From a virus (Duplodnaviria > Caudoviricetes): 55,557 nucleotides of DNA. Both the position numbers and the translations under genes were made by a program. Under the pieces are notes generated by a model, which did no database searches, was not told where the DNA came from, and saw nothing but the letters and a program-made list of their open reading frames with translations. Shown piece after piece: positions 2,406 through 53,251 of this stretch (position 1 is the stretch's first letter; each line of letters starts with the position of its first letter). The stretch covers positions 1 through 55,557 of IMG/VR virus record IMGVR_UViG_3300044699_000015. One strand, written 5' to 3'.

Positions 2406-2963
2406 TCATGCGTGGGTTAGTGTGTTAAGTTGCGCCTCGGCTTCGGTTATAGTCGCCTTGGCAGCGGAAAGCTCTATTGTCTCAAACGCATCGAAATAAC
2501 GCTTCCCAAAGGCATCCTGAGCGCAATTACGCAGTATCCGGCTTTTAGTCTCCTTCGCCTCTTTCAGTTTCCGTTCCCAATAGATGATTAAAGAACCGGG
2601 GGAAGATGTTCCATTCCTTATTTTTGGTTCTACTGGTTTCAATTCGTGGCCCTGTTTAGAACCGTCCTGAGGGTCACAAGTAGAACCGCGTAGGTTCTGG
2701 ATAGAACCGTTCACGAAATACCGATTAGACCTTTTTAATTCGCGTTTTTCGACTTTGATGTAGCCAGCCGATTTCAATTCCTTAATCCATCCGAGGAGCG
2801 CGGCGCGTCCGCAATGCAGTTCCCGGCAGATTGTTTTGAGCGACGGCCAGCAGCACTCATTCTTGCCCGTCATATCACGGAATAAATGCCAAGCCCTAAA
2901 TGCGCCGTGGGATATGCGCTCGTCTCGGATGATTTTGGAATATAGCTTTGGGGAGATTTTCAA
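2406..2963 (-). CDS. winged-helix (HTH_36-like) replication-initiator-like protein, paralog 1
   Basis: RISHGAFRAWHLFRDMTGKNECCWPSLKTICREL...IKELKSAGYI...SNRYFV; start moved to TTG 2963 because similarity to 52445-53251 begins there and the upstream DNA is promoter plus structured leader. Confidence 0.75.
   Translation of the reverse strand: MKISPKLYSKIIRDERISHGAFRAWHLFRDMTGKNECCWPSLKTICRELHCGRAALLGWIKELKSAGYIKVEKRELKRSNRYFVNGSIQNLRGSTCDPQDGSKQGHELKPVEPKIRNGTSSPGSLIIYWERKLKEAKETKSRILRNCAQDAFGKRYFDAFETIELSAAKATITEAEAQLNTLTHA
2591..2709. repeat. iteron-like repeats inside initiator-like gene
   Basis: TAGAACCG at 2657, 2681, 2702; AAGAACCG at 2591; inverted GGTTCT at 2626 and 2693. Confidence 0.6.
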
Positions 2964-2969
2964 TCTGAT

Positions 2970-3102
2970 AACCAATTCCCACAAGACACACCCGCCCCGG
3001 CGACAACCGTCCAGCCTCGCGGCGAGAGATTCCGAAACGGGCGTGTATTGTGGCAACTGATTAGTGCAGAAGCCGCGTATGTAGCATTCGAGACGGTTGT
3101 CA
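2970..3102 (-). ncRNA. structured 5' leader (A-C-B-C'-A'-B' pseudoknot/switch), copy 1
   Basis: A 3102-3091 pairs A' 3012-3001 (12 bp); B 3062-3032 pairs B' 3000-2970 (29/31); C 3077-3072 pairs C' 3023-3018; G-U wobbles only on minus strand. Confidence 0.75.
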
Positions 3103-3116
3103 TATCGTCTAGTGGG

Positions 3117-3145
3117 TTTATCGCCCATGCCGCCGAAAGTGTCAA
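3117..3145 (-). promoter_or_regulatory. sigma70-like promoter
   Basis: TTGACA-17-GATAAA just upstream of the leader. Confidence 0.55.
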
Positions 3146-3158
3146 CGAGATTCATAGG

Positions 3159-5986: not shown

Positions 5987-6024
5987 TTGACTAATACATT
6001 ATCTAAAGGTATGAATTGTGTCAA
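5987..6024. promoter_or_regulatory. overlapping divergent sigma70-like promoters
   Basis: minus: TTGACA(6024-6019)-17-TAATGT; plus: TTGACT(5987-5992)-17-TATGAA. Confidence 0.6.
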
Positions 6025-6500
6025 TGAAAATAAACCCTGAAATGATTTTTATTTACGGCATCTTTAACGAGTGCGGCTCATGCGTTTACGTTGGGCGCTC
6101 TTGTTCTCCGATGAAAAGATTCAATCTTCACCAGTGTGTAAACGGCAAATTTCATGGCCGAAAAGTGACGATGAAAGTTTTTCGCGCCACGCTTCCGCAA
6201 CATGCGAATAGAATTGAGAATCAAATAGGCGTTGCTTATCGGAAAAGAGGGCAAGCGATTTACTCGAAAACATGGACAAATAGCCCTAAAATACCAAAGC
6301 ATATTGGTGGAACCCACGTTTACGTTGAGGGGATAGAAAAGCCATTCCCTAGCATAAATGCCGCTGGCCGTGCGCTTGGCGTATCGAACACGACGGTTTC
6401 AGAGTATTTGCGTGTGGGGTTTTTCTTTTCTGAGGAATACGAAAGAGATTTCCGAATAGCAACATCCCCTATGCCTTTAGTAATAGATTTTCAGATTTAA
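6024..6500 (+). CDS. GIY-YIG homing-endonuclease-like protein with NUMOD1-like C-terminus
   Basis: IFIYGIFNECGSCVYVGRS...RFNLH; FPSINAAGRALGVSNTTV. Confidence 0.75.
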   Translation: MKINPEMIFIYGIFNECGSCVYVGRSCSPMKRFNLHQCVNGKFHGRKVTMKVFRATLPQHANRIENQIGVAYRKRGQAIYSKTWTNSPKIPKHIGGTHVYVEGIEKPFPSINAAGRALGVSNTTVSEYLRVGFFFSEEYERDFRIATSPMPLVIDFQI

Positions 6501-9211: not shown

Positions 9212-9619
9212 CTACTGAATGGTCTTTATGTGACGGATGTAATCGTTCAGGATTTGACCGGAACGGGCAGGGTAATCGAGAATCATTTGTGGAAGTTCGG
9301 TGTCCCAAACATTCGATTTCCTGCAATAATCGCAGACAATCGCTGCGAATTTCTTGGTTATTCGGGTGAGTTTTTCCATCGCCTTTGATTCGGTTTCGGT
9401 AATCACCGATGTTTTAAATGTGCAGCGTGTGACTTCCACGATTCGACAGACCTTGGCCACGGAATCGAATATCCTTCGCTTTTCCACCATGAAATCAGCA
9501 CACCGATTGCAGCAAAGCATTTTCTTCCATGATTCAATTTGAAACTCAATTCCTTGCTCACTGTCGAAATCAAGCCATCCCGGCTTGTGGCAGAACTTAC
9601 AGGTGTAATCAATTCTCAT
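9212..9619 (-). CDS. Zn-binding hypothetical protein coupled to initiator gene
   Basis: CKFC, CNRC, CDYC; ATGA overlap. Confidence 0.65.
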   Translation of the reverse strand: MRIDYTCKFCHKPGWLDFDSEQGIEFQIESWKKMLCCNRCADFMVEKRRIFDSVAKVCRIVEVTRCTFKTSVITETESKAMEKLTRITKKFAAIVCDYCRKSNVWDTELPQMILDYPARSGQILNDYIRHIKTIQ

Positions 9620-10323
9620 ATTCTATCCAACTCCTTTTCTAACAATGATTTGGTTAATGGTTTACCGTTAAATTGTCCGTTCGTTACCGGCTTTTGGCTC
9701 GGTAAGTAACCGGCGGCTTTCCATGCGGCAATAGTGTGCGGCCAGCTTTTGATTGGCTTTCCGTTCACCGTCCATCCGTTTCCTTCGCACTTGTTCCAGA
9801 ACCAAACCGCGTCGGACTCGGGAAGTCCTGACTTGGCCACTGCCAGCTTTACCTCCTCAAGAGAGGGCTTTGTCTTAAGAGTCTTGGGAACAGAAGCAAC
9901 TACAGAAGCAGAGGCAGGCTGAATCGTGGTAACGCTTGTAACGTTACGTAACGCATGGTAACGTTCCCTGTGCTTTCGCACTCTCTCTCTTGTTTTTACT
10001 GCGATGGGATTGGAGGAAAGCCGGTCACGGAAAGCCAAGTAATTTAGCACGAGCCAACCTTCCTGTAGGGTTTCAATTCGCCTCCCGTCATTATCCGGTG
10101 TGCGTGACTGAGGGTCGGGTGATTCAAACTTCTTTAAGGCTTCTAGGCAGGCCGAGTTGGTAACTTTGGACTTAGCCGCTAGCCAGCCCACGGAACCCCT
10201 TACAAGTCCATCAGCGTTACATAACGCAAGTAACGTTACCCACACCTTGCAGGTTTCGGCATCCTCATCCCAGATTGAACTGTCAACAATGTCAGAAAAA
10301 AGTTTCGTATAGCCGTCAGACAT
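9616..10323 (-). CDS. phage replisome-organiser / replication-initiator-like protein
   Basis: YTKLFSDIVDSSIW...KVWVTLLAL...GWLVLNY...RERVRKHRER; C-terminal PSLEEV...FWNKCEGNGW.VNGKPIKSW. Confidence 0.75.
   Translation of the reverse strand: MSDGYTKLFSDIVDSSIWDEDAETCKVWVTLLALCNADGLVRGSVGWLAAKSKVTNSACLEALKKFESPDPQSRTPDNDGRRIETLQEGWLVLNYLAFRDRLSSNPIAVKTRERVRKHRERYHALRNVTSVTTIQPASASVVASVPKTLKTKPSLEEVKLAVAKSGLPESDAVWFWNKCEGNGWTVNGKPIKSWPHTIAAWKAAGYLPSQKPVTNGQFNGKPLTKSLLEKELDRI
9929..9963. repeat. iteron-like repeats
   Basis: GTAACG at 9929, 9938, 9948, 9958 (about one helical turn apart). Confidence 0.6.
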
Positions 10324-10331
10324 AAGTAGAA

Positions 10332-10430
10332 AAAATCTCACTCCCACTGCCAAAGGCGTGTGATGTCAGAGCGCGAAGGAACCGACCGCCATTAGCAGGG
10401 GAAGTGAAATTTTGATTTCCCGACATCACA
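10332..10430 (-). ncRNA. structured 5' leader (A-B-A'-B'), copy 2
   Basis: A 10430-10420 pairs A' 10369-10359 (11 bp); B 10413-10387 pairs B' 10358-10332 (25/27); B' holds GGGAG and ends in a U6 run. Confidence 0.75.
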
Positions 10431-10435
10431 AAAAG

Positions 10436-10464
10436 ACACTCTCAAAACACCCATGGGGTGTCAA
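10436..10464 (-). promoter_or_regulatory. sigma70-like promoter
   Basis: TTGACA-17-GAGTGT, 5 nt before element A. Confidence 0.5.
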
Positions 10465-10540: not shown

Positions 10541-10918
10541 ATGAAACAAGCTCTCCAAAAACACCGTAAATCGTTCAAGAAATGGGCCATGCCGGGACAG
10601 CGGACACAAACCTTGGATGCTGAAAACATCAGCGAGCAGAAATCAGTGTCCAAGTATTTCGGAAGGAACTTTGAAAACGTCGGTAAGAACAATGGCGGTT
10701 TGAAACTTTCCATACCTGCCAGAAATCTAAGCACGATGTTCACACTTCGGAACATTCGCTGCTTTCAGACCCTTGTGGCCTTCGTGCAAAATCAATTCCT
10801 TCGATGGCATACAACCCGCAACAAAAAGAACCATCACGACGCGATAGGCATCGGCTTGGAATCGAAAACAAATCGCCACAAAAGAGATAACCAACGCGAC
10901 TCCAAAACCACCCTATAA
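10541..10918 (+). CDS. hypothetical basic protein
   Basis: 125-aa ORF filling the gap. Confidence 0.45.
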   Translation: MKQALQKHRKSFKKWAMPGQRTQTLDAENISEQKSVSKYFGRNFENVGKNNGGLKLSIPARNLSTMFTLRNIRCFQTLVAFVQNQFLRWHTTRNKKNHHDAIGIGLESKTNRHKRDNQRDSKTTL

Positions 10919-14690: not shown

Positions 14691-16502
14691 TCAATCGTGG
14701 ACTAATAGCCGTGATTTGATGGCATTTTCAAATTCTTCCATCTCGGCTTGCATGAAGTTATCTGTTGAATCCTCGGATTTGTCAATAATTCCAATGCGGG
14801 TTATCTGGAAACCCAATCTTCTCGCCCCCTCGACCCCTATGGCAAATGTATCCATCAAATCTGGGCTTTTCTTGATTCGCTCCTTCATGTCCTCCTTTTT
14901 CTCTATCTCAATCTTGTTGCCAGCGACGATGGAATACATACGCATCTGGCCCTCTTGAGCGACTTCCTTGGGAAGATTGCGAACTTGTTCGGATTCGATG
15001 GCTTCTCGGGTTGAGAACCATAGTTCGGTCAAAAATTTTGAATAATGCTCCGAACACTTTTTCAATCTCTTTTCAATCATCCCGTATTCATTTTTAACTT
15101 CATGGAACAAATCGTGCCTTACAGGTCGGTCGGTCGGTTTTCCTCCTGCATTCACCGGAATTGGAGATTTATCTTTGAACACTTTTGAAAAAGCATGGCC
15201 GATTGTGCCGATTCCAAATGAGTCGTAAAAACAATTCTCCGATGGAATTCCCAACATATCCAATTTCTCTTTGGCGAATGCTGCAATTTGCTCCTCCGGT
15301 TCCATGCTCGAATTAAGTCTGATTGGAATTATTTCTGGCTCGCTACAATCAATCACGGTTTGTCCATAAGCGTCTTCACCGAACTGCAATTCCATACCCA
15401 CGCATCTATCGCCAGAGCCATAGGCTAAATCAATTGCGTAAAGTTTTGTGCGTTCAGTTCCTTTCCATACAACATCATCAAACGCCTTGTGTTTTTGGCA
15501 TAATGTCATCGTAATCACTCTCCAAGACACCATATTCTTAGAGGGCTTACCGATGCATTGAGAAAACCATTGCCACGAGTCTTTGCCGTGGGTGGAGGCG
15601 ACTGATTCGAGCAATTTATCCGATATTAGAAACGGATAACGGGTTCCCGGAAAATCTTTGTTGGGATTGTCTCTGCCATCAAAGGCGACGACGTGGGCAT
15701 TGTAAAACTTTGATTTCCATTCCTGAGTTTTTTCCGTGTCAACAAATGAATCCCATCCCGCGATAGGCTCTGCGGCTGTGCAAAGCGGTTCCGCGAGGTC
15801 GAGGGGATTGCCTCCCATGCAACCCTTGAAATTTTGATTCACCATCCAATTCGTATATGCGTCCAAAAAACTTGGCTGCATCAATGCGGCCTCATCTCCG
15901 TAGTGCGCCAACTTACCGTCTAATTTTCCGGGTGAGTTGGGAGGCTTAACACCCTGAAATTTTGACATGCCAACAAATCTTCCACCGCTGACGCAGGGCA
16001 CGCACACAATACCTTTATTTATAGTTCTTGCCATTTCATTGTCGTCATCAATATCGTCCGGTGTGATGGCCATTGCCGATTCTAGAACGTATCCGGGAAG
16101 CCAAGGGAACTTTGATTTAGCACGGTTGTATAATTCTTTAACCCGACCCCATACGCGCAATTCCAGTGACCGTTTATCGGTGGAGGAAATCAATGACAAA
16201 GAAGTGTGCGGGAAACAAAAAAAATCTATCAATGGCATGACTGCCATCAGAGTAGTTTTTCCAGAGCTTGCACTTCCAAGAAACACAGTTATTTGATTCT
16301 CAACCATTCTTCTGATTCCCAAAGTGAACCAACGATGCTGTTCGTCTTCTTGGAAAAGAAGTTTGTGAATCCTCAAATATGTATCTACGCGATTCGTTCC
16401 GAGTTTGGCCATTTGTGAATCTGATTGGCCCAACATCCACATTTCGATTTGAAGCTCATGCGTTCCCTCTGGCCATAGAAGCCCATATCTGTTAAGCGAC
16501 AT
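14691..16502 (-). CDS. terL: terminase large subunit
   Basis: Walker A GSASSGKT, Walker B GDEAA, GNP coupling motif, RNase H-like AIDLAYGSGDRCV, C-terminal KSPDLMD. Confidence 0.9.
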   Translation of the reverse strand: MSLNRYGLLWPEGTHELQIEMWMLGQSDSQMAKLGTNRVDTYLRIHKLLFQEDEQHRWFTLGIRRMVENQITVFLGSASSGKTTLMAVMPLIDFFCFPHTSLSLISSTDKRSLELRVWGRVKELYNRAKSKFPWLPGYVLESAMAITPDDIDDDNEMARTINKGIVCVPCVSGGRFVGMSKFQGVKPPNSPGKLDGKLAHYGDEAALMQPSFLDAYTNWMVNQNFKGCMGGNPLDLAEPLCTAAEPIAGWDSFVDTEKTQEWKSKFYNAHVVAFDGRDNPNKDFPGTRYPFLISDKLLESVASTHGKDSWQWFSQCIGKPSKNMVSWRVITMTLCQKHKAFDDVVWKGTERTKLYAIDLAYGSGDRCVGMELQFGEDAYGQTVIDCSEPEIIPIRLNSSMEPEEQIAAFAKEKLDMLGIPSENCFYDSFGIGTIGHAFSKVFKDKSPIPVNAGGKPTDRPVRHDLFHEVKNEYGMIEKRLKKCSEHYSKFLTELWFSTREAIESEQVRNLPKEVAQEGQMRMYSIVAGNKIEIEKKEDMKERIKKSPDLMDTFAIGVEGARRLGFQITRIGIIDKSEDSTDNFMQAEMEEFENAIKSRLLVHD

Positions 16503-17100
16503 TTTTCCACAGCTTTCTTTTCAAAATAAACCCAATCGCAGTTTTGGATACTCCGTATTCTCTGCCTAAAGTTTTCCAAGTCCACCCGCCTATTGCATAT
16601 TTCTGCCTTATTTCTCTCACCTGCCACTCGAACAGTCTTGAGTCTCCATTTCTCTCTCCTCTGGCGACACATTCAGGATGTAGTCTTGGGCCGCTCCTAT
16701 CTCCACGGGCTAATTTTTCTGGATTTGTTCTGGCATAATGGGCATCTCCCCTAATGGTAACTTTTCTTCCCTTTTTAATCATGTCCCTAATGTTATCAAG
16801 ACACGTTCCCAAGAATAAGTGAGAGGGATTTACGCATCCGGGGTTGTCGCAATGGTGACAAATAAAGTGACTCTCTGGAATAACTCCATTTTTTATCATC
16901 CAAACCAAACGGTTTGCGTTATAGGCTCCTTTTCTAACGTAAAACCTTCCATATCCAGAGCGTTTTCTGCCCAACCACTCCCAACAATCGCCATTTTTAT
17001 CAACAAGTGACCAAAATTTAGTCTCCTGTTCGGGAGTTAGTTTGACATATTGCCATTTGCTTGGGATGGTTTCAGAAGAACCGGACATCTTAGTTTTCAT
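16492..17100 (-). CDS. HNH (His-Cys box-like) homing endonuclease with C-terminal HTH
   Basis: CWEWLG...GYGRF...ICHHCDNPGCVNPSHLFLGT..DNIRDM..KGR. Confidence 0.9.
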   Translation of the reverse strand: MKTKMSGSSETIPSKWQYVKLTPEQETKFWSLVDKNGDCWEWLGRKRSGYGRFYVRKGAYNANRLVWMIKNGVIPESHFICHHCDNPGCVNPSHLFLGTCLDNIRDMIKKGRKVTIRGDAHYARTNPEKLARGDRSGPRLHPECVARGERNGDSRLFEWQVREIRQKYAIGGWTWKTLGREYGVSKTAIGFILKRKLWKNVA

Positions 17101-17184
17101 TCTTATGTTTGGTTTTAGCGGCTCGCGTGGCGTGATTACCATTCGAGCCGTGTTTATTTTGTCATTCCATCGTAAAATCACAAG

Positions 17185-18502
17185 TCATTTAACTAAAAAA
17201 TCCTGCGAATACCCAATATACCTGACGAGATTAGTCTTAACTCCCGTTGCCAATGTCTGAATGCCATAATACGTCGCCATGCTATCGGCAGCGCGAATGT
17301 ATTGGTTGGGAACATTCGTTGTCGCGGTTACAGAAGTTGTCCGGTTCACGGTGAAAGTGACATTCGTTCCCGTCTTGGTGAACTGCAAAAAGTATTGGCC
17401 GTCGTTAGTGAGTCCCACAGTGGTATCCACAACGGTCTGATTCGTTGCATTGCAAACGACCCCCTTCCATGTTGAATCATTGGCCGCTGTGGAATATCGG
17501 AAAAAGACCATGTTCGTATTGATGTTATCCGCTCCCATGCTCGTTGCCAAAGCTGCCGCTGTGAAACCAAAGTTAATTCTGACATCGTTTGTGTTTCGGA
17601 CAGTGATAAATGTCTGCGCCGTCCAAGTTGAGTTGGAATATGGGGCCAAGGCATTGAAAGTCTGAGAGCCTAAAAACTCAATCGCGTTTGCCGTCGAAGC
17701 TGTTCGCATATCAATCCAAAGGCCAATCGGTGACAATGTTCTATGTGAAACCAAGGCCGCACCCGTGCCACCGGAATTGGCAAAGCTGAGAGTGTCGCCA
17801 ACGCCATTGAATGCCGCCGTGCCAGCATCGGCCACATCCGAGGAAACTGTTCTGGAAGTCACGAGAGAGTTTGTCTGCGCTTGCAGTAAGTCGGTTATGC
17901 TACTTCCTCCACCGCCTCCCGATGCCGCAATCTGAATGTTGGTTCCACCTTGGTCTGTTAATGTGACATTTGCTCCCGCGCTTAAAGATTTGAGTGAAAC
18001 AATTGGCTGGTTAGAAGTCGAGATAAGCGAAACCGAAGATGCTAAAGTGCTGCTGTTGGTAACATTGTTGATAAGCCCCCCCCGAAACAGTGGTTGCTAT
18101 ATCTGCGTTGGTGGCATGAGCCGCTTCATTTACCGCAACATTCCCCAAAGCCGATACGATGTCCACCGCATTGCTTTTCAATGGTGTATAAAGCAGCGTG
18201 AAAGTGATGATTGGCGTGGTTGTGGGAGTGGCTACATTAACCGTGAATAAAGGAGAGGCATTTCCAGACGATACGCTGGTGACGGTTCCAGAGCCGCCAC
18301 CGCCTCCCGTGGCGTTGATTTTGAAACCGCCGTTGAACCTAGAAAATGTGACGTTTGTGCCAGCGTATAGATTTGTTATCCCGAGATATGGTTGAGCCGA
18401 TGCAAGATTTGGCTTCTGAATCAATCCCAATCCCCAAGGTGTCCATTGTGCGAATGATGAAAATGTTGTTAGGAATAAAAGGGCGGCGATTATCTTTTTC
18501 AC
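17185..18502 (-). CDS. signal-peptide-bearing T/N/G-rich fibre/adhesin-like protein (frameshift in G8 tract 18076-18083)
   Basis: MKKIIAALLFLTTFSSFA|QW signal; GGGGSGTVTSV motif; removing one G fuses 18011-18520 with 17185-17862. Confidence 0.65.
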
Positions 18503-18513
18503 GATTACTGCTT

Positions 18514-19196
18514 TTACCACCTTCTAACTGGAGTGCAAAGGGATTTCTCGATTGACCATCCATTAACCAATCTATCTTGGAGCGTTCTGTAATTTATCCC
18601 AATCTCCAAAGACCATAGCATCATACTCTGGCGCTTTCCGTTAAATTCTATAATCCTATTATTTCTTCTATTGTTTTGCTGCTGTTCGGGGGTTGCCCAA
18701 ATACAATTTGAGGGTTCGTAATTTCCATTAACATTTTTACGCTCAATGCTATGTGTTTTGGATGGCCTAAGTCCCATATCGGATAAAAAACAATCGAATG
18801 AATTTAGCCAACGCTCGCAGATTGAAATTCCCCGACCTCCATAATCTTTGTAATCTGAACATTTTGTGTTTAAACATCGCTGCTTTAATCTGCTCCAAGT
18901 ATCATATTCTGGCATTATATTTCCCTTTTAGCATAACCATGAACATAGTTTCTTTTAGAGGTTGTTTCTGAACTTAAACAACCGCACGAGTTGGTTCGTT
19001 TTCCTATATCGTGCCCTGTGACAGTTGTTGTATTTCCACAATCGCATTTACAAAACCAAAGCGACCTCCAATGTTTACTTCCGGCGTGATATAAGACGGT
19101 TAATTTCCCATATCTCTTTCCTGTTCGGTCAATAAATCCATTGCCGCGCTTGACTGTTGTAAGGGAATTATGAGAGGGTTTGTTTAGGTCATTCAT
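18514..19196 (-). CDS. HNH-like endonuclease (two ORFs joined by TAATG or a 1-bp deletion near 18923)
   Basis: TGKRYGKLTV...WFCKCDCG...SCGC..HG, then YDTWSRLKQRC..YGGRGI.IC.RW...SIERKNVNGNYEPSNCIWAT. Confidence 0.8.
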
Positions 19197-19303
19197 ATTT
19201 ACGTATGGTGATTTAGCTTGGCGTTGGTTGTTCAATGCTTCCAACGTCAGGCGTCATTCTGCTTGACATGTAGGCATAAGCAAGCCGAAAGTCAGTCAAA
19301 TTT

Positions 19304-20167
19304 ATGAACCCGGTTTCATGTGCTCCTTCTTGTTGTGAAAGTGTTTTACCCATACAAATTCCGGGGCCAGAAGGCCCCGACGGAACTCCCGGAATTTCTG
19401 GAACCGACGGTAAAAACGCCTTCACTTTCACCACCGCCGATTTCACTGTTCCTGCCATTGGCGCAAACGTCGTTGTTCTCGTTGCGAACTCCGATTGGAT
19501 GACTCTGGGTCAAAATGTATTCGTTCAAACCGCTGGAAACTTTAAAGTGGTTGAAAAGCCAGCTTCAACGAGCGTTATTCTGCAATATCTAAATTATGCT
19601 GGAAATGTTGGCACAGGAAATTTGGTTGGAACGGGGATGCAAGTCAGTCCATCCGGCACGCAGGTAGATGTTTCTGGAATAATCGAATTGGTGGATAGCA
19701 CCGGAGGGACAATTAGCAATGATATAAACTCTGGTGTCGGAAAAACGACTATTGCGCTATACATCACGCTCGCAAACCTCACTAATGCTGATGTTATTAC
19801 GGCTTACACACCCGGATATGCCTTCAAACTGTTAAAAGTTTCTTTCGGTGTTCAAGTGGCTGCAACCACCGCTTTGAAATTGGCAACTATCACACCTTAC
19901 ATTTCCGGGGTGGCAGTTACAGGAGGAATTTTGTCGCTGACTTCCGCCAACTGCACCCCCAAAGGAACGATAGTGGCTGGAAGTGCAATTACCGCTTTGA
20001 ATACCGGAGATGATGCAGCCACTATCACGCTGACCGCCTCGGCAGTAACGGCTTTCGTGGAAGGAACCGGATGGATTTTGATTGAGATTCAGAATACTGA
20101 TGTTGCCAATGCGCTTGCCTCTCTCGCAGCAAAACAGAATGAACTGTTGACAGCCCTTGCACCTTAA
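19304..20167 (+). CDS. tail/fibre-type structural protein with short collagen-like segment
   Basis: GPEGPDGTPGISGTDGKN; FTVPAIG domain shared with the next gene. Confidence 0.6.
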   Translation: MNPVSCAPSCCESVLPIQIPGPEGPDGTPGISGTDGKNAFTFTTADFTVPAIGANVVVLVANSDWMTLGQNVFVQTAGNFKVVEKPASTSVILQYLNYAGNVGTGNLVGTGMQVSPSGTQVDVSGIIELVDSTGGTISNDINSGVGKTTIALYITLANLTNADVITAYTPGYAFKLLKVSFGVQVAATTALKLATITPYISGVAVTGGILSLTSANCTPKGTIVAGSAITALNTGDDAATITLTASAVTAFVEGTGWILIEIQNTDVANALASLAAKQNELLTALAP

Positions 20168-20168
20168 T

Positions 20169-22683
20169 GTGGCTGACAAAAATCCAGTTCAATATGTAGA
20201 AGACGCTTTCGGTGTGCTGCCGGATGGAATGAATAGCGGATTATCTCCTCTGCTATTGGAAAAAACTCAGTTGTCCTTTGGTAGTAATCTTACTGTCCGA
20301 AATGGCTATGCCACAGACCGACCTCCTATAATTCGCAAGACTATTGATTTCCAAGGCGATACAGCACTCCAAACCGCTATTGAAAAAGGGTTGTGGCAAA
20401 CCTTCATATTCTATCAGCCAATAATCGGTGATACAAAATTGATGGTTTCCATTAGTGGGCGAGTGTTTGAATTTTCCGAACAGTTGAACGGAGAATTTAC
20501 CGTCATCGAAAGGACAATTCCGAGCGACCCCAATCCCGCGACTCAGCCGCAGGCTTGGATGGTGCAGGCAGAGCAATTTCTGATATTAAACGATGGTGTT
20601 TCGGTTCCCTATATTTGGGATGGCTCCATTGCACGCAGAGCACAGACCAATACGCCAACGGTTTACGGAATCACTAATGCAGACTTCACCGTTCCACAAG
20701 TGGGGGCATCAGTAACCATCAATATTGCGAGTGGATATACTGGCCCGTTAAACGTAGCAATTTACATCGGCGGGCATATTTACGTTGTCACCAATCAAAG
20801 CAATAACACTCAGGCGTATTCTCTGGCATCGGTTAAAAATGTAAACGGAGTTGCGGGGTCAACCGTTGACGCGGGAACACCTGTCATCATAAAAGGAACC
20901 GGACTGATTGTTGGAACCACGACAACGGGTTTTGCCTTCAATGATTTCTTTTTGCATGATTTAGGTCTTGATACCAGCACGGCACAAACCACTGTCGCAG
21001 ATAATAGCATTGTTACAATCTTAGGGCGACGGTTCAGAAAAAACGGCACAAAGTTTGCAATTCAATCAGGGCCATTCCCCTTTGTGGTTCCAGCCGGTTC
21101 TCAGGTTATCAGCACGGGGGCCGCGCAACCCGACCAGACCATAGCGACGGTTTATGAAGCGTTCACGGTTCCTGCTATCGGCTCCTCAGTGACGGTAAAA
21201 ACCACTTCGCTTTATTCCGGCGCAGACAATCAGGCGGTTCAGATAAATTCAAAGAACTTTGAGATTTCAAAGACAACTCAGCCCCCGACTCCACCGGCTA
21301 CTTTGATTGTCAGCAATGTGAACGACTCTCCGGGGAATACGGTTATCAGCGGAACCGATTTGGCGTCCGGTGCATTGGTCGGAGTTTCCACCGAACTGCC
21401 TCCGGGTAGGATGCTGGTTTATGGCATGGGGCGTATTTGGGAATGTCTCACTGATGGAAAACAGTTTGTCGCAGGTGATATTGTTGGCGGTTCATCCGGC
21501 ACACAGACTTACAATTATACCGACTCGGTTTTACGGGTGACAGAAAACTCTTATCTGGCAGGCGGTGGAAATTTCAGAACGCCTAGCAGCGGTGGCACGA
21601 TTAACGCCATGATTTTCACGGCCACCTTGGATGTTTTCATTGGGACAAGGGCCGATACAGATATTCACACCATCAGGAGTGTTTTCATGTCAGGCTCCGG
21701 TGGATAGAACCACATGGAACTCGCTTACCAATCCAATCCTCACGCAATCCCTGATTTCGTTTGGAGCCTTGGGACAGGATTCAACCGTGCTGGCTAATAG
21801 CGATACCTTGTTTCGCTCCATTGATGGCATCCGTTCGTTGATTCTCGCACGCCGGGAATTTGCTACATGGGGCAACACTCCAATTTCAAACGAAATGGAT
21901 AGGGTTCTGACGAATGACCAAATAGATTTGTTAGCCTATTCCAGCGCAACGGTATTCGACAATCGTTTGCTGATGACGTGCGCTCCACAGGCTTCAACCC
22001 AAGGTGTTTTCAATAGCGGATTGATTGCCCTAAACTTTTCACCCATCAGCACGCTTCGAGGAAAGTCCCCATCGGTTTATGATGGACTATGGACAGGCGT
22101 GAACGTCCTTAAAATCCTGTCAGGACAATTCAATGGTTTAGACCGTTGTTTCGCCTTCACTTACAATTTAGACCAAAAGAAGATTGAGCTTTATGAGTTT
22201 CTAAAGACGGGAAATGACCATTTTGACAATGGAAACACGCCGATTACATGGACAATGGAAAGCGCGTCGTTGTTCCATAAAATCAAAGGCAAAACCGACT
22301 TCGATTTGGTGAGAATGACCGATGGGGAAATTTATATTGATGACGTGATAGGAATGGTAACGGTTCAGGCGTATTACAAACCCGACCAGTATCCCTGTTG
22401 GGTCAAGTGGACACAATTTAACGTGTGTGCCAAGAAAAATAACCCGGATTTAGGACAACCGATTGATAATTCAATCAAGCCACAATATCGAACGCGCATT
22501 GGACTTGGACAACCAAGCGCAGACGATTGCTACGATGTTACCGGCAGGCCGTTGCGCGAGTTTTACACCTGCCAAGTGAAGTTTATCATCACGGGACATT
22601 GCCGATTTTTGGGTGCTAAATTCAAGGCGGCGATTGTGCCGGAGTCTTACTACGCGAAGCAACTTTGTGAGGGGGAATGTTAA
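20169..22683 (+). CDS. large tail (nozzle/tubular-B-like) structural protein, frameshift at T4 21634-21637
   Basis: Beta-rich, ~837 aa after removing one T (..LDVSLGQGP..); function inferred from size and position. Confidence 0.55.
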
Positions 22684-43655: not shown

Positions 43656-43883
43656 ATGGCTATTAGCTGCGAACCCAACGACCTCGCAGCAGCAATAACG
43701 TGTTTTGATAAACTTTCAGCATTACAACTGGAACAAGTTAAGACCTATTTGCTCGCTGTAATAGCAGGAGGCTCTACCGACCCGGAAACCCTCATGGCTT
43801 CCGCGAAATGCTTTAACAAGTTTAGTTTTGAGCAATTGTTGGAGGTGCAAACCTATCTGCTCTGTCAAATCGCTAACGCATGA
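43656..43883 (+). CDS. Cys-repeat small protein (2 repeats)
   Basis: SCEPNDLAAAITCFDKLS...TYLL / STDPETLMASAKCFNKFS...TYLLCQIA. Confidence 0.75.
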   Translation: MAISCEPNDLAAAITCFDKLSALQLEQVKTYLLAVIAGGSTDPETLMASAKCFNKFSFEQLLEVQTYLLCQIANA

Positions 43884-44077
43884 TTTCTTGTGACCCTAAC
43901 GATTTGTCAGCCGCCGCCAAGTGCTTCTCGAAGTTGAGCAATCGCCAGAACTCGGAGGCGGCAGCATATTTGCTCTGTCAAATCGCCAATGGAGGTGGTG
44001 GAAGTGGTAACTTTAGAATTACGGAGGCTGGAGACAGACGCATAACGGAAGCTGGCGACCCAAGGATAATTGAATGA
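43880..44077 (+). CDS. Cys-repeat small protein with RITEAGD tandem
   Basis: SCDPNDLSAAAKCFSKLS...YLLCQIANGGGGSG-RITEAGDRRITEAGDPRIIE. Confidence 0.75.
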   Translation: MISCDPNDLSAAAKCFSKLSNRQNSEAAAYLLCQIANGGGGSGNFRITEAGDRRITEAGDPRIIE

Positions 44078-52166: not shown

Positions 52167-52277
52167 GCCTGAAATTATCACCCCGCCGTTGCAAAGTCCA
52201 TCCGATGTAATACGGATGCCATTCCGAACACTTTCACCTTGCCATTTTTAATCGGCGGGAGGACGATGCGAGAATGC

Positions 52278-52306
52278 TTGACAGGAAATGGTCATTTGAC
52301 CAATAT
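52278..52306 (+). promoter_or_regulatory. sigma70-like promoter
   Basis: TTGACA-17-CAATAT. Confidence 0.6.
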
Positions 52307-52314
52307 CGGAGCAA

Positions 52315-52438
52315 TGTATACGTTGATTCAGTTCGCGGCAAGCGAGTCTCAATCGCCCCCGTTCGTGTCTGTAGGAGTCCGAAGCCTTGCCGCCCAAAGA
52401 CGTATACAGCCTACAGACATGAATCGGGGTTATTGGGA
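52315..52438 (+). ncRNA. structured 5' leader (A-C-B-C'-A'-B'), copy 3
   Basis: A 52315-52324/A' 52399-52408; C 52335-52342/C' 52386-52393; B 52347-52375/B' 52410-52438 (27/29). Confidence 0.75.
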
Positions 52439-52444
52439 ATCGCC

Positions 52445-53251
52445 TTGCAATTAGACCCCAAGATTTATTCCCAAATCATTCAAGATAAGCGTATCTCTCA
52501 CGGCGCTTTCAGGGTGTGGCATCTACTTCGAGACATGACCGGCGACAACACTCATTGCTGGCCATCCATGCGGACGATATGCAAGAAGATTAGTTGCAGC
52601 AAATCTTCGGTTTCGGGGTGGATTAAAGAGCTAATCGAAGCGCAGTATGTAACGGTGAAGCGCGGCTCTCGACATTCGCCAAACAGGTATTTCGTGAGCG
52701 GTATCGTTTCAAACCTCAGTGTCTCGGAAGGATACCACAGAGGTATCGTTTCAGGGACGGAATTGAACTCAAAGAATATTAACTCAAATAACCAACTAGC
52801 TTCTAGTATGGAAAATCCACAAGACAAAAACGTTCAGGACTTCCACCACTGTTACAGGCAATCAACGGGATTAGATGTCTCTCTTAATTTTTACCGTGAA
52901 AGCATGTGGCGCGAATGGTTCCGGTATGGCGAAACTCATTGCGGTGGGTTTACTCAGGACGACTTGCGGGCCGTGGTTGAGTTGCGAAAATTCCGGGCCA
53001 AGAACAAAATGCAGGGATACCACACTTTAGCGTTTAATGCGCTTATAGGCTCGCCAGATGTCATGGAGGAGGATTTGTCAGAAGCCCGCGCAAAGTCTCG
53101 CCAGCGCAAGCCTAGCGCCAGAGACGCGATTTTAAGAGCCACAGGCCGACCCACAGAGCCAACCCGTGCTGCTGTGACTGCGGGCAATGTGATTGAGGGG
53201 GAACGCGCTTTCCAAGCGTTCAGGCAATGGCGTGCAGAGAATAACCTGTGA
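52445..53251 (+). CDS. winged-helix (HTH_36-like) replication-initiator-like protein, paralog 2
   Basis: RISHGAFRVWHLLRDMTGDNTHCWPSMRTIC...GWIKEL...NRYFV; TTG start 6 nt after leader. Confidence 0.75.
   Translation: MQLDPKIYSQIIQDKRISHGAFRVWHLLRDMTGDNTHCWPSMRTICKKISCSKSSVSGWIKELIEAQYVTVKRGSRHSPNRYFVSGIVSNLSVSEGYHRGIVSGTELNSKNINSNNQLASSMENPQDKNVQDFHHCYRQSTGLDVSLNFYRESMWREWFRYGETHCGGFTQDDLRAVVELRKFRAKNKMQGYHTLAFNALIGSPDVMEEDLSEARAKSRQRKPSARDAILRATGRPTEPTRAAVTAGNVIEGERAFQAFRQWRAENNL
52700..52753. repeat. iteron-like repeats
   Basis: GGTATCGTTTCA at 52700 and 52742; inverted GATACC at 52731. Confidence 0.55.

Follow-up and report, generated by a model that had tools for sequence, protein, structure and literature searches.

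How does an uncultured tailed phage govern the synthesis of the protein that initiates its replication? Such control is well understood in plasmids, and hardly in most uncultured tailed phages. The question is raised by a short stretch of the virus record IMGVR_UViG_3300044699_000015 (Duplodnaviria; Caudoviricetes), a contig of 55,557 bp that was analysed over its whole length and is called the window here. Between two divergent genes, one on the plus strand at 10541–10918 (called by the source) and one on the minus strand at 9616–10323, lies a minus-strand leader that runs from 10464 to 10324. We refer to this leader as W3 and to the protein encoded by the gene after it as P0001. The layout of the leader was confirmed at the sequence level, and on these grounds W3 appears to be the real, conserved and folded 5′ end of a phage mRNA. 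Two of its pairings interlock, a short reading frame crosses the fold, and its likeliest role is to set whether a DNA-replication gene is switched on. The reading we favour, to which we assign a probability of about one half, is that W3 is a cis-acting mRNA leader of a phage winged-helix, initiator-like gene and works as a translation-sensing attenuator and coupling gate.

A folded leader with two interleaved helices

The original prediction, made from the sequence alone, had described segments in the order A-B-A′-B′ before the gene at 10323, with B:B′ pairing at 25 of 27 positions and with B′ holding GGGAG and running into a T6 run. All of these sequence statements hold on the minus strand (Table 1). 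The core of A is an exact 11-mer (10430–10420), which pairs with 10369–10359 with one G·U pair and gives 12 pairs when extended by one. The 25 pairs of B:B′, over strands of 27 nt, are the minimum-free-energy (MFE) fold. Together the two helices (12 + 25 pairs) interleave in the H-type pseudoknot order A, B, A′, B′. For folding as such, W3 has only a modest z-score (−2.36), and 4 of 200 shuffles folded equally well. When the contig was searched against Rfam 15, no family matched at gathering scores and none matched in or near the three leaders described below at E ≤ 5; the only two hits in the contig at E ≤ 5 lie elsewhere, are unrelated and are at chance level.

Table 1 Positions of the leader elements in the window and of the gene after the flagged leader
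Feature	Position	Strand	Remarks
W3 TTGACA, exact	10459–10464	−	taken as −35, putative promoter; in loop of small GC hairpin 10469–10454
W3 −10-like hexamer	10436–10441	−	weak; 17 nt after −35; 2 of 6 positions match TATAAT; predicted start near 10430
W3 element A	10419–10430	−	12 nt; predicted RNA 5′ end; holds leader-frame ATG 10426–10424; p = 0.003 given B:B′
W3 leader reading frame	10316–10426	−	36 codons + TGA 10318–10316; stop 5 nt into main gene
W3 element B	10387–10413	−	5′ strand of long hairpin
W3 element A′	10359–10370	−	complementary to A; gap to B′ = 0
W3 element B′	10332–10358	−	3′ strand of long hairpin; contains GGGAG 10345–10341; pairs four of six T
W3 T6 (U6) run	10330–10335	−	at B:B′ foot; ends 6 nt before main ATG 10323–10321
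P0001 gene	9616–10323	−	235 aa; ATG 10323–10321; N-terminal winged-helix domain kept in many uncultured phages
Leader W1	2961–3145	−	before HTH_36 paralog 2406–2963; TTGACA 3145–3140; A 3102–3091; B 3070–3032; A′ 3012–3001; B′ 3000–2964
W1 leader reading frame	3103–2960	−	47 codons; TGA overlaps TTG main start
Leader W2	52278–52454	+	before HTH_36 paralog 52445–53251; TTGACA 52278–52283; A 52315–52324; B 52338–52375; A′ 52399–52408; B′ 52410–52448
W2 leader reading frame	52314–52454	+	46 codons

Two further features of the W3 sequence may be mentioned here. In the MFE fold of the full leader (10315–10430, minus strand), A also forms a weak pairing, G·U pairs included, with the opening codons of the main gene; these codons are a partial repeat of A′ and, in this model, a possible third partner of A. 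In addition, a 21-nt family with a common 11-nt AT-rich core occurs within element B (10405–10425) and at two places within the terminase-like gene (15827–15847 and 15955–15975), a sharing that is probably due to chance.

Three leaders of one design in the same genome

The original prediction had compared the leader with those of two winged-helix paralogs of the contig; these are HTH_36 genes, and leaders with the matching part order were indeed found before both of them (W1 and W2, Table 1). The three leaders share the order of their parts and no sequence likeness, and MAFFT aligned little besides TTGACA. When interleaved helices were scored in 1846 segments of 200 nt covering both strands of the genome, the three leaders took the top three places (W1 63, W3 57 and W2 56; 99th percentile, 48.5). 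For every copy, none of 30 dinucleotide shuffles came up to its combined A + B score. The long helices comprise 25–35 pairs, A is joined to B by 5–20 nt (5 nt in W3), and A′ abuts B′ in all three. The sense strand gave the stabler fold in each copy (sense/antisense energies of −73.8/−56, −68.2/−61.9 and −52/−40 kcal/mol). The TTG main start of W2 is enclosed in B′, and that of W1 lies 1 nt past B′.

A TTGACA stands about 30–45 nt before A in each leader, and the genome as a whole has 30 copies of this hexamer, below shuffle counts. The −10 hexamers of all three leaders are poor. At the matching position, the −10 hexamers of relatives are much better than that of W3 (for example, TTGACA-18-TATAAT in the relative L095), and the transcript start would then fall within a few nt of A. 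From these sequences, A probably lies at the 5′ end of the transcript, which would start about 30 nt after TTGACA. The small hairpin around the TTGACA of W3, together with the T-rich run after it, was listed as terminator-like by a scan, and may shield the leader promoter from transcription that arrives from upstream. Elsewhere in the genome, two direct repeats of 36 nt (43841–43989, 113 nt apart and 81% alike) each carry a minus-strand TTGACA and may be tandem promoters or operators.

A small reading frame runs through the fold

The original prediction did not include a leader open reading frame (ORF), which begins within A and closes on the main start. Its ATG lies inside A or touches it in each of the three copies, and the frame runs through B, A′ and B′ to a stop on the main start, at +5, +1 and +7 for W3, W1 and W2, respectively. 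The main starts themselves are weak, being TTG in two copies and, in W3, an ATG without a well-spaced Shine-Dalgarno (SD) sequence. The proposal that B:B′ sequesters such a sequence was not borne out, for the GGGAG of B′ lies 17 nt from the ATG, a poor SD spacing.

Among the 27 leaders in which the layout was detected (see below), 14 have an ATG within 12 nt of A and an ORF that ends at −12 to +25 of the main start, against an expectation of 1.0 with full shuffles or 6.5 with only the middle shuffled (P = 3e-5); L047 falls outside the range by a single base. An ATG stands near A in 15 leaders, and in 14 of them its frame is open as far as the main start. The peptide sequences show no conservation, in keeping with translation itself, and not its product, being what counts.

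Homologues of the HTH_36 paralogs carry a possible trace of the same frame. N-terminal extensions of 48–91 aa were called in 23 of 30 N-terminal-domain matches, counted by hand from roughly the top 40 rows of a HMMER search. Within these extensions, in frame, V or L stands at the TTG of the window genes, and a [Y/N/H][D/E/A] pair recurs (dipeptide pattern xAT-Gxx), an indirect sign, at the protein level, that is consistent with a conserved out-of-frame ATG. In the two paralogs of the window the main frame is also open across the entire leader, to an ATG just before TTGACA (2961–3155, minus strand, and 52274–52447, plus strand), and the W1 gene was called by the source in a long, 249-aa form. 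We considered whether the extensions of W1 and W2 are coding and rejected this: the extensions of the two paralogs are unrelated, similarity starts at the TTG, and several homologues begin there. Programmed frameshifting that would join the leader ORF to the main frame was likewise rejected, because the U6 context does not form an X XXY YYZ site when read in the frame of the leader and every P0001 relative begins at the annotated Met.

Covariation among relatives

In metagenomes, 253 relatives of P0001 were found at E ≤ 0.001; 125 loci were fetched and 86 non-redundant upstream regions were kept. These 86 and the three window copies were given to a layout finder, which looks for two interleaved contiguous stems, allows G·U on the sense strand and uses 30 dinucleotide shuffles per leader; 88 were testable. 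Over the last 130 nt before the start, the folding z-score was below −2 in 29% and below −3 in 19% of the relatives' upstream regions. The A-B-A′-B′ layout was detected at p ≤ 0.04 in 27 of the 88 leaders, 19 of them with 0 of 30 shuffles. The other 61 are mostly without the layout, and some of the 27 positives are probably false or mis-assigned (L013, L044, L084, L079 and L014).

From one leader to the next, the four segments (A, A′, B and B′) have unrelated letters, and with the window leader as query, blastn gave only chance-level short matches to the relatives' loci. Since the letters differ and the layout is the same, the pairings are kept by covariation. With the long hairpin taken as given, the best duplex joining upstream to interior sequence (A:A′) outdid those from shuffled upstream sequence in 5 of 30 leaders at the p ≤ 0.01 level and in 7 at the p ≤ 0.05 level. 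A′ and B′ are 0–1 nt apart in 14 of these 30 leaders, among them the three window copies, L101, L110, L114, L003, L064 and L066. An alignment of a single clade, with four sequences, small and shifted, showed pairing in all four rows for the B:B′ columns only. The sense fold was stabler than the antisense fold in 24 of the 27 positive leaders (mean difference, −6.3 kcal/mol; Wilcoxon, 8.6e-5), which points to RNA.

Of the HTH_36 paralogs, no relatives were found in single-sequence or alignment-based scans of viral contigs, a word-based protein search returned only the query, and PF13730 gave nothing above cut-off in two related phage records. Four distant prophage-type HTH_36 loci (in metagenome-assembled genomes (MAGs) of Verrucomicrobiota and in one genome labelled Bifidobacterium) had interleaved scores of 37–48, which are unremarkable.

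The closest complete relative of the phage is G001, the 65.5-kb record of L003. Its best interleaved scores cluster in one early region, 18300–22000, and amount to 82 at 21889–21982, 64 at 18908–18823 and 56 for the leader of the P0001 homologue; the score of 82 exceeds every score in the window. As the same layout stands before small genes of unknown function in G001, the design is not limited to replication genes. In this phage group the layout therefore signals where early operons begin, not just where replication genes do, and some leaders do without the leader ORF. The earlier claim that the motif follows function and not gene family survives in part: within the window it precedes three initiator-type genes from two unrelated sequence families, while the small genes in G001 speak against a strict tie to function.

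Folding order and U-rich tails

All of the evidence on the helices and how they covary, on the leader ORF, on the U-rich tails and on the energies of folding was obtained in silico, and the energies give a predicted order of events. For the RNA from the predicted start through A′, the predicted best fold is A:A′ in each copy (−35.4, −28.8 and −20.6 kcal/mol). In the complete leader, B:B′ is favoured by 11–17 kcal/mol over the best fold with A:A′ enforced. The earlier suggestion that A:A′ pairing modulates B:B′ is thus plausible in these models, in which the nascent RNA folds as A:A′ and the full leader as B:B′. Because A′ abuts B′ and only 5–20 nt join A to B, we estimate that the full stack of 12 plus 25–35 pairs could not be spanned, so that A:A′ and the outer B:B′ pairs, next to the U run and the start, would be mutually exclusive.

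The original prediction had also seen in B:B′ an intrinsic terminator. In favour of this, U-rich tails are enriched in the family: at least 5 T in 8 within 25 nt past the B′ core occur in 17 of the 27 leaders as against 28% of control windows (binomial, 1.3e-4), at least 6 T in 12 of 27 as against 12% of controls, and with a stricter window in 10 of 27 as against 17%. The W3 hairpin itself offers 25 pairs and a U6, but four of the U pair with an A run, the foot is rich in A/U and G·U pairs, the interior measures 28 nt, and a simple terminator scan does not list B:B′. W1 and W2 lack a U tract altogether. The terminator part of the proposal thus gains support in silico as a tendency of the family and not for every copy.

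A possible translation-sensing gate and its alternatives

From these results we infer a transcript start, termination, coupling and a direction of the switch, which could be combined as follows. Transcription would start about 30 nt after TTGACA, and element A, which carries the ATG of the leader ORF (36 codons in W3), would be made first. A′ would be made next, and A:A′ would form and hide the leader ATG. B′ would be made last, upon which the far stabler B:B′ hairpin becomes possible; with the U run at its end it would be terminator-like, and it would bury or abut the main start region. With A′ abutting B′ and A tied to B by a short linker, both helices would never be complete together. A ribosome loading early enough on the leader ATG would traverse B, A′ and B′, hold the hairpin open and stop on the main start codon, and transcription read-through (where a U tract exists) and translation of the main gene by coupling would follow. 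With no such ribosome, A:A′ would hide the leader ATG, B:B′ would close and the gene would be off.

Several observations weigh against this reading. The putative promoter of W3 is weak by consensus, and a promoter scan lists none for any of the three leaders. W1 and W2 have no U tract, and 13 of the 27 positive leaders have no ATG leader ORF. In these G+C-rich folds the antisense strand is also often open (22 versus 30 of 81 frames), so openness alone is weak evidence and shuffles may understate chance. The strand test is somewhat biased, as the positives were chosen with G·U allowed on the sense strand, and the relatives do not count as independent cases (L110 and L114 are an example); several of the leaders are close kin. 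The highest-scoring leader of G001, at 21889–21982, has a strong SD and an upstream frame of only 4 codons, and precedes small genes of unknown function. The polarity of the switch could also be the reverse, with a ribosome on A freeing B for termination.

The same leader could be explained without any role for translation. As a pure transcription attenuator, B:B′ and U6 would form an intrinsic terminator in the 5′ untranslated region, A:A′ would be the antiterminator and the leader ORF would be incidental; the U6 at the foot of a 25-pair hairpin, the family-wide enrichment of U-rich tails, the predicted early formation of A:A′ and the positives without an ATG leader ORF would all agree with it. 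We nevertheless consider it unlikely, in view of the start codons in or against B′ in W1 and W2, neither of which has a U tract, the frame that stays open in 14 of 15 leaders with an ATG near A, and the paired U residues, long interior and omission from the scan that make the W3 stem atypical for an intrinsic terminator; a factor that would choose between the folds is not evident either. RNase III requires roughly 20 bp, a length exceeded by the helices of 25–35 pairs, and host RNase III might cut the long, near-perfect hairpin as in phage early mRNAs, setting the half-life or freeing the start, while A:A′, with A at the predicted 5′ end, would shield that end. Such a processing or stability element would leave the leader ORF, the U-rich tails and the abutment of A′ and B′ unexplained, and we give it a small chance as the whole account; it is compatible with a translation-sensing gate rather than exclusive of it, since termination, cutting by RNase III and coupling do not rule one another out.

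Two further explanations place the function outside the mRNA of the downstream gene. Origins and autoregulatory sites often lie beside initiator-type genes, and the interleaved inverted repeats, standing as they do beside such genes, could act at the DNA level, be it as an origin, as a cruciform or as operators bound by the encoded proteins, all three of which are predicted DNA binders. This is very improbable in our judgement: G·U pairs stabilise the sense fold by 6 kcal/mol on average (24 of 27), the position is fixed from promoter-like site to start codon, and L003 and L047, whose N-terminal domains are 77–85% identical, have wholly different A and B letters, which argues against protein-binding repeats. 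The promoter-like site, the compact fold and the U run would equally fit a separate gene for a trans-acting small RNA, with a folded RNA of about 100 nt, a U6 terminator and a downstream gene fed only by incidental read-through. We find this hardly credible, for the three copies have no common sequence to define a shared target, W1 and W2 lack a terminator, the fold always abuts the start codon and no Rfam family matches.

Beyond the single locus, we tentatively propose, although the odds are rather against so broad a statement, that the leaders represent a widespread and undescribed class of phage mRNA leaders. Its members would combine a 5′ segment bearing the leader-ORF start with an interleaved terminator-like hairpin, so that only nascent transcripts that catch a ribosome express the initiator; this 'one-shot' gate, present in one phage on three unrelated initiator genes, would be a phage counterpart of plasmid copy-number control without antisense RNA. 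One genome carries three sequence-unrelated leaders of identical design on its three initiator-type genes, and in dozens of distant relatives covariation has preserved this design. If the translation-sensing model is true, it describes a simple, portable RNA device that ties expression to co-transcriptional translation, provides a new RNA family for annotating early regions of phages, and explains the false N-terminal extensions that gene callers give these initiators.

Comparison with known systems

In layout, the leader ORF overlaps the hairpin, which is putatively inhibitory, and its stop falls on or close to the main start, an arrangement known from leader-ORF attenuators and coupled genes. 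The pyrBI attenuator of E. coli is ribosome-mediated and has its terminator inside the leader ORF. Like it, the phage leaders have a promoter-proximal leader ORF that passes through a terminator-like hairpin and ends just past it, so that a translating ribosome would block the hairpin. Unlike it, they have no evident nucleotide-sensing pause region, an extra A:A′ pairing would hide the leader ATG, the leader stop on the main start would add coupling, and two of the three copies have no U tract.

Leader peptides coupled to replication genes are described for plasmids in passages of PMC8053102, namely R1 tap/repA with CopA, ColIb-P9 repY/repZ, IncB repBA (Inc RNA and pseudoknot) and IncI2 repR/repA. 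As those passages present them, these leaders resemble the phage leaders in having a short leader ORF that ends over the initiator start, a structure that blocks this start, a long-range leader pairing that decides and a replication initiator as the controlled gene. They differ in topology: the phage leader pairs its 5′ end, with the leader ATG, with a segment abutting the 3′ strand of the hairpin, whereas the plasmids described there pair a hairpin loop with a site adjacent to the ribosome-binding site (RBS). An activating pseudoknot of the R1/ColIb-P9/IncB type, between an upstream loop and an RBS-adjacent site as these passages define it, was not found in the phage leaders. The phage leaders further stand apart by a leader ORF of 36–47 codons across the whole fold, by a common U-rich, terminator-like tail and by their tailed-phage-like genome. 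No promoter-like site was seen on the opposite strand of the leaders, and hence no antisense promoter of the plasmid kind, in scans that also miss the sense promoters.

According to passages of PMC12548453, ribosomes open inhibitory hairpins and interfere with terminators, and in phage f1 a long hairpin lies just before the downstream start of genes VII/IX and is opened by upstream translation. The phage leaders share with f1, as portrayed there, the long hairpin just before a weakly initiating gene and the (here predicted) need for upstream translation through it. The upstream frame of f1 is a real gene in that account, while the frame of the phage leaders is non-conserved and accompanied by an interleaved helix. 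The leader class thus resembles the logic of plasmid rep, f1 and pyrBI and is a member of none, because no antisense promoter was seen in these scans, the long-range topology is different and no Rfam family matches.

A 2023 catalogue lists candidate structured RNAs, DNAVirus_187, DNAVirus_230 and DNAVirus_7005, upstream of DUF1376/DUF4373/DnaD genes in viral contigs (PMC10690425, Supplementary Table 3). Compared by names and counts only, these are likewise structures found by covariation within 25 nt upstream of phage initiator-like winged-helix genes, and the catalogue passages bearing on them give no mechanism, leader ORF or pseudoknot layout. A full-text literature search found no description of this layout in phages. 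New here are A at the predicted 5′ end, the leader ORF that runs through the fold onto the main start, and the family-wide U-rich tail.

Downstream proteins and genome setting

The protein behind W3 is unlike the two paralogs, as the original prediction had stated: profile comparison of P0001 with the HTH_36 paralogs gave an hhalign probability of 0.9%. Yet its N-terminal domain is also a predicted winged helix, of a generic kind by structural modelling; residues 7–102 aligned with CRP-type domains with a VIA-align Z of 8.5 and a root-mean-square deviation of 1.7 over 65 residues. A Foldseek search with this domain gave no match at E ≤ 0.001, and tblastn of P0001 against a phage GenBank collection gave none. 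P0001 has no Pfam match and a single weak match to a PHROG whose function is not known, and one of 31 P0001 relatives carries Phg_2220_C. The label 'replisome organiser', which the gene had been given earlier, is therefore not established. The two HTH_36 paralogs match PHROG families of replication initiation and DnaD-like loaders.

As to the host, the nearest genomic (prophage-type) relatives of the HTH_36 paralogs, L134–L137, come from Verrucomicrobiota MAGs (Limisphaerales, Verrucomicrobiia), and one P0001 relative also bears a Verrucomicrobiia name; these names hint at Verrucomicrobiota as the host phylum.

Other recognisable genes in the contig include several HNH and GIY-YIG endonucleases, a distant match to the large terminase, an Erf recombinase, two Lar-like genes and a VRR-NUC nuclease. 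The genome is rich in homing endonucleases, with three consecutive HNH genes at 16492–19244 (minus strand) and a GIY-YIG/NUMOD gene at 6018–6500 (plus strand). The ORFs at 18915–19244 and 18514–18915 cover successive parts of phrog_374 and may be a split gene.

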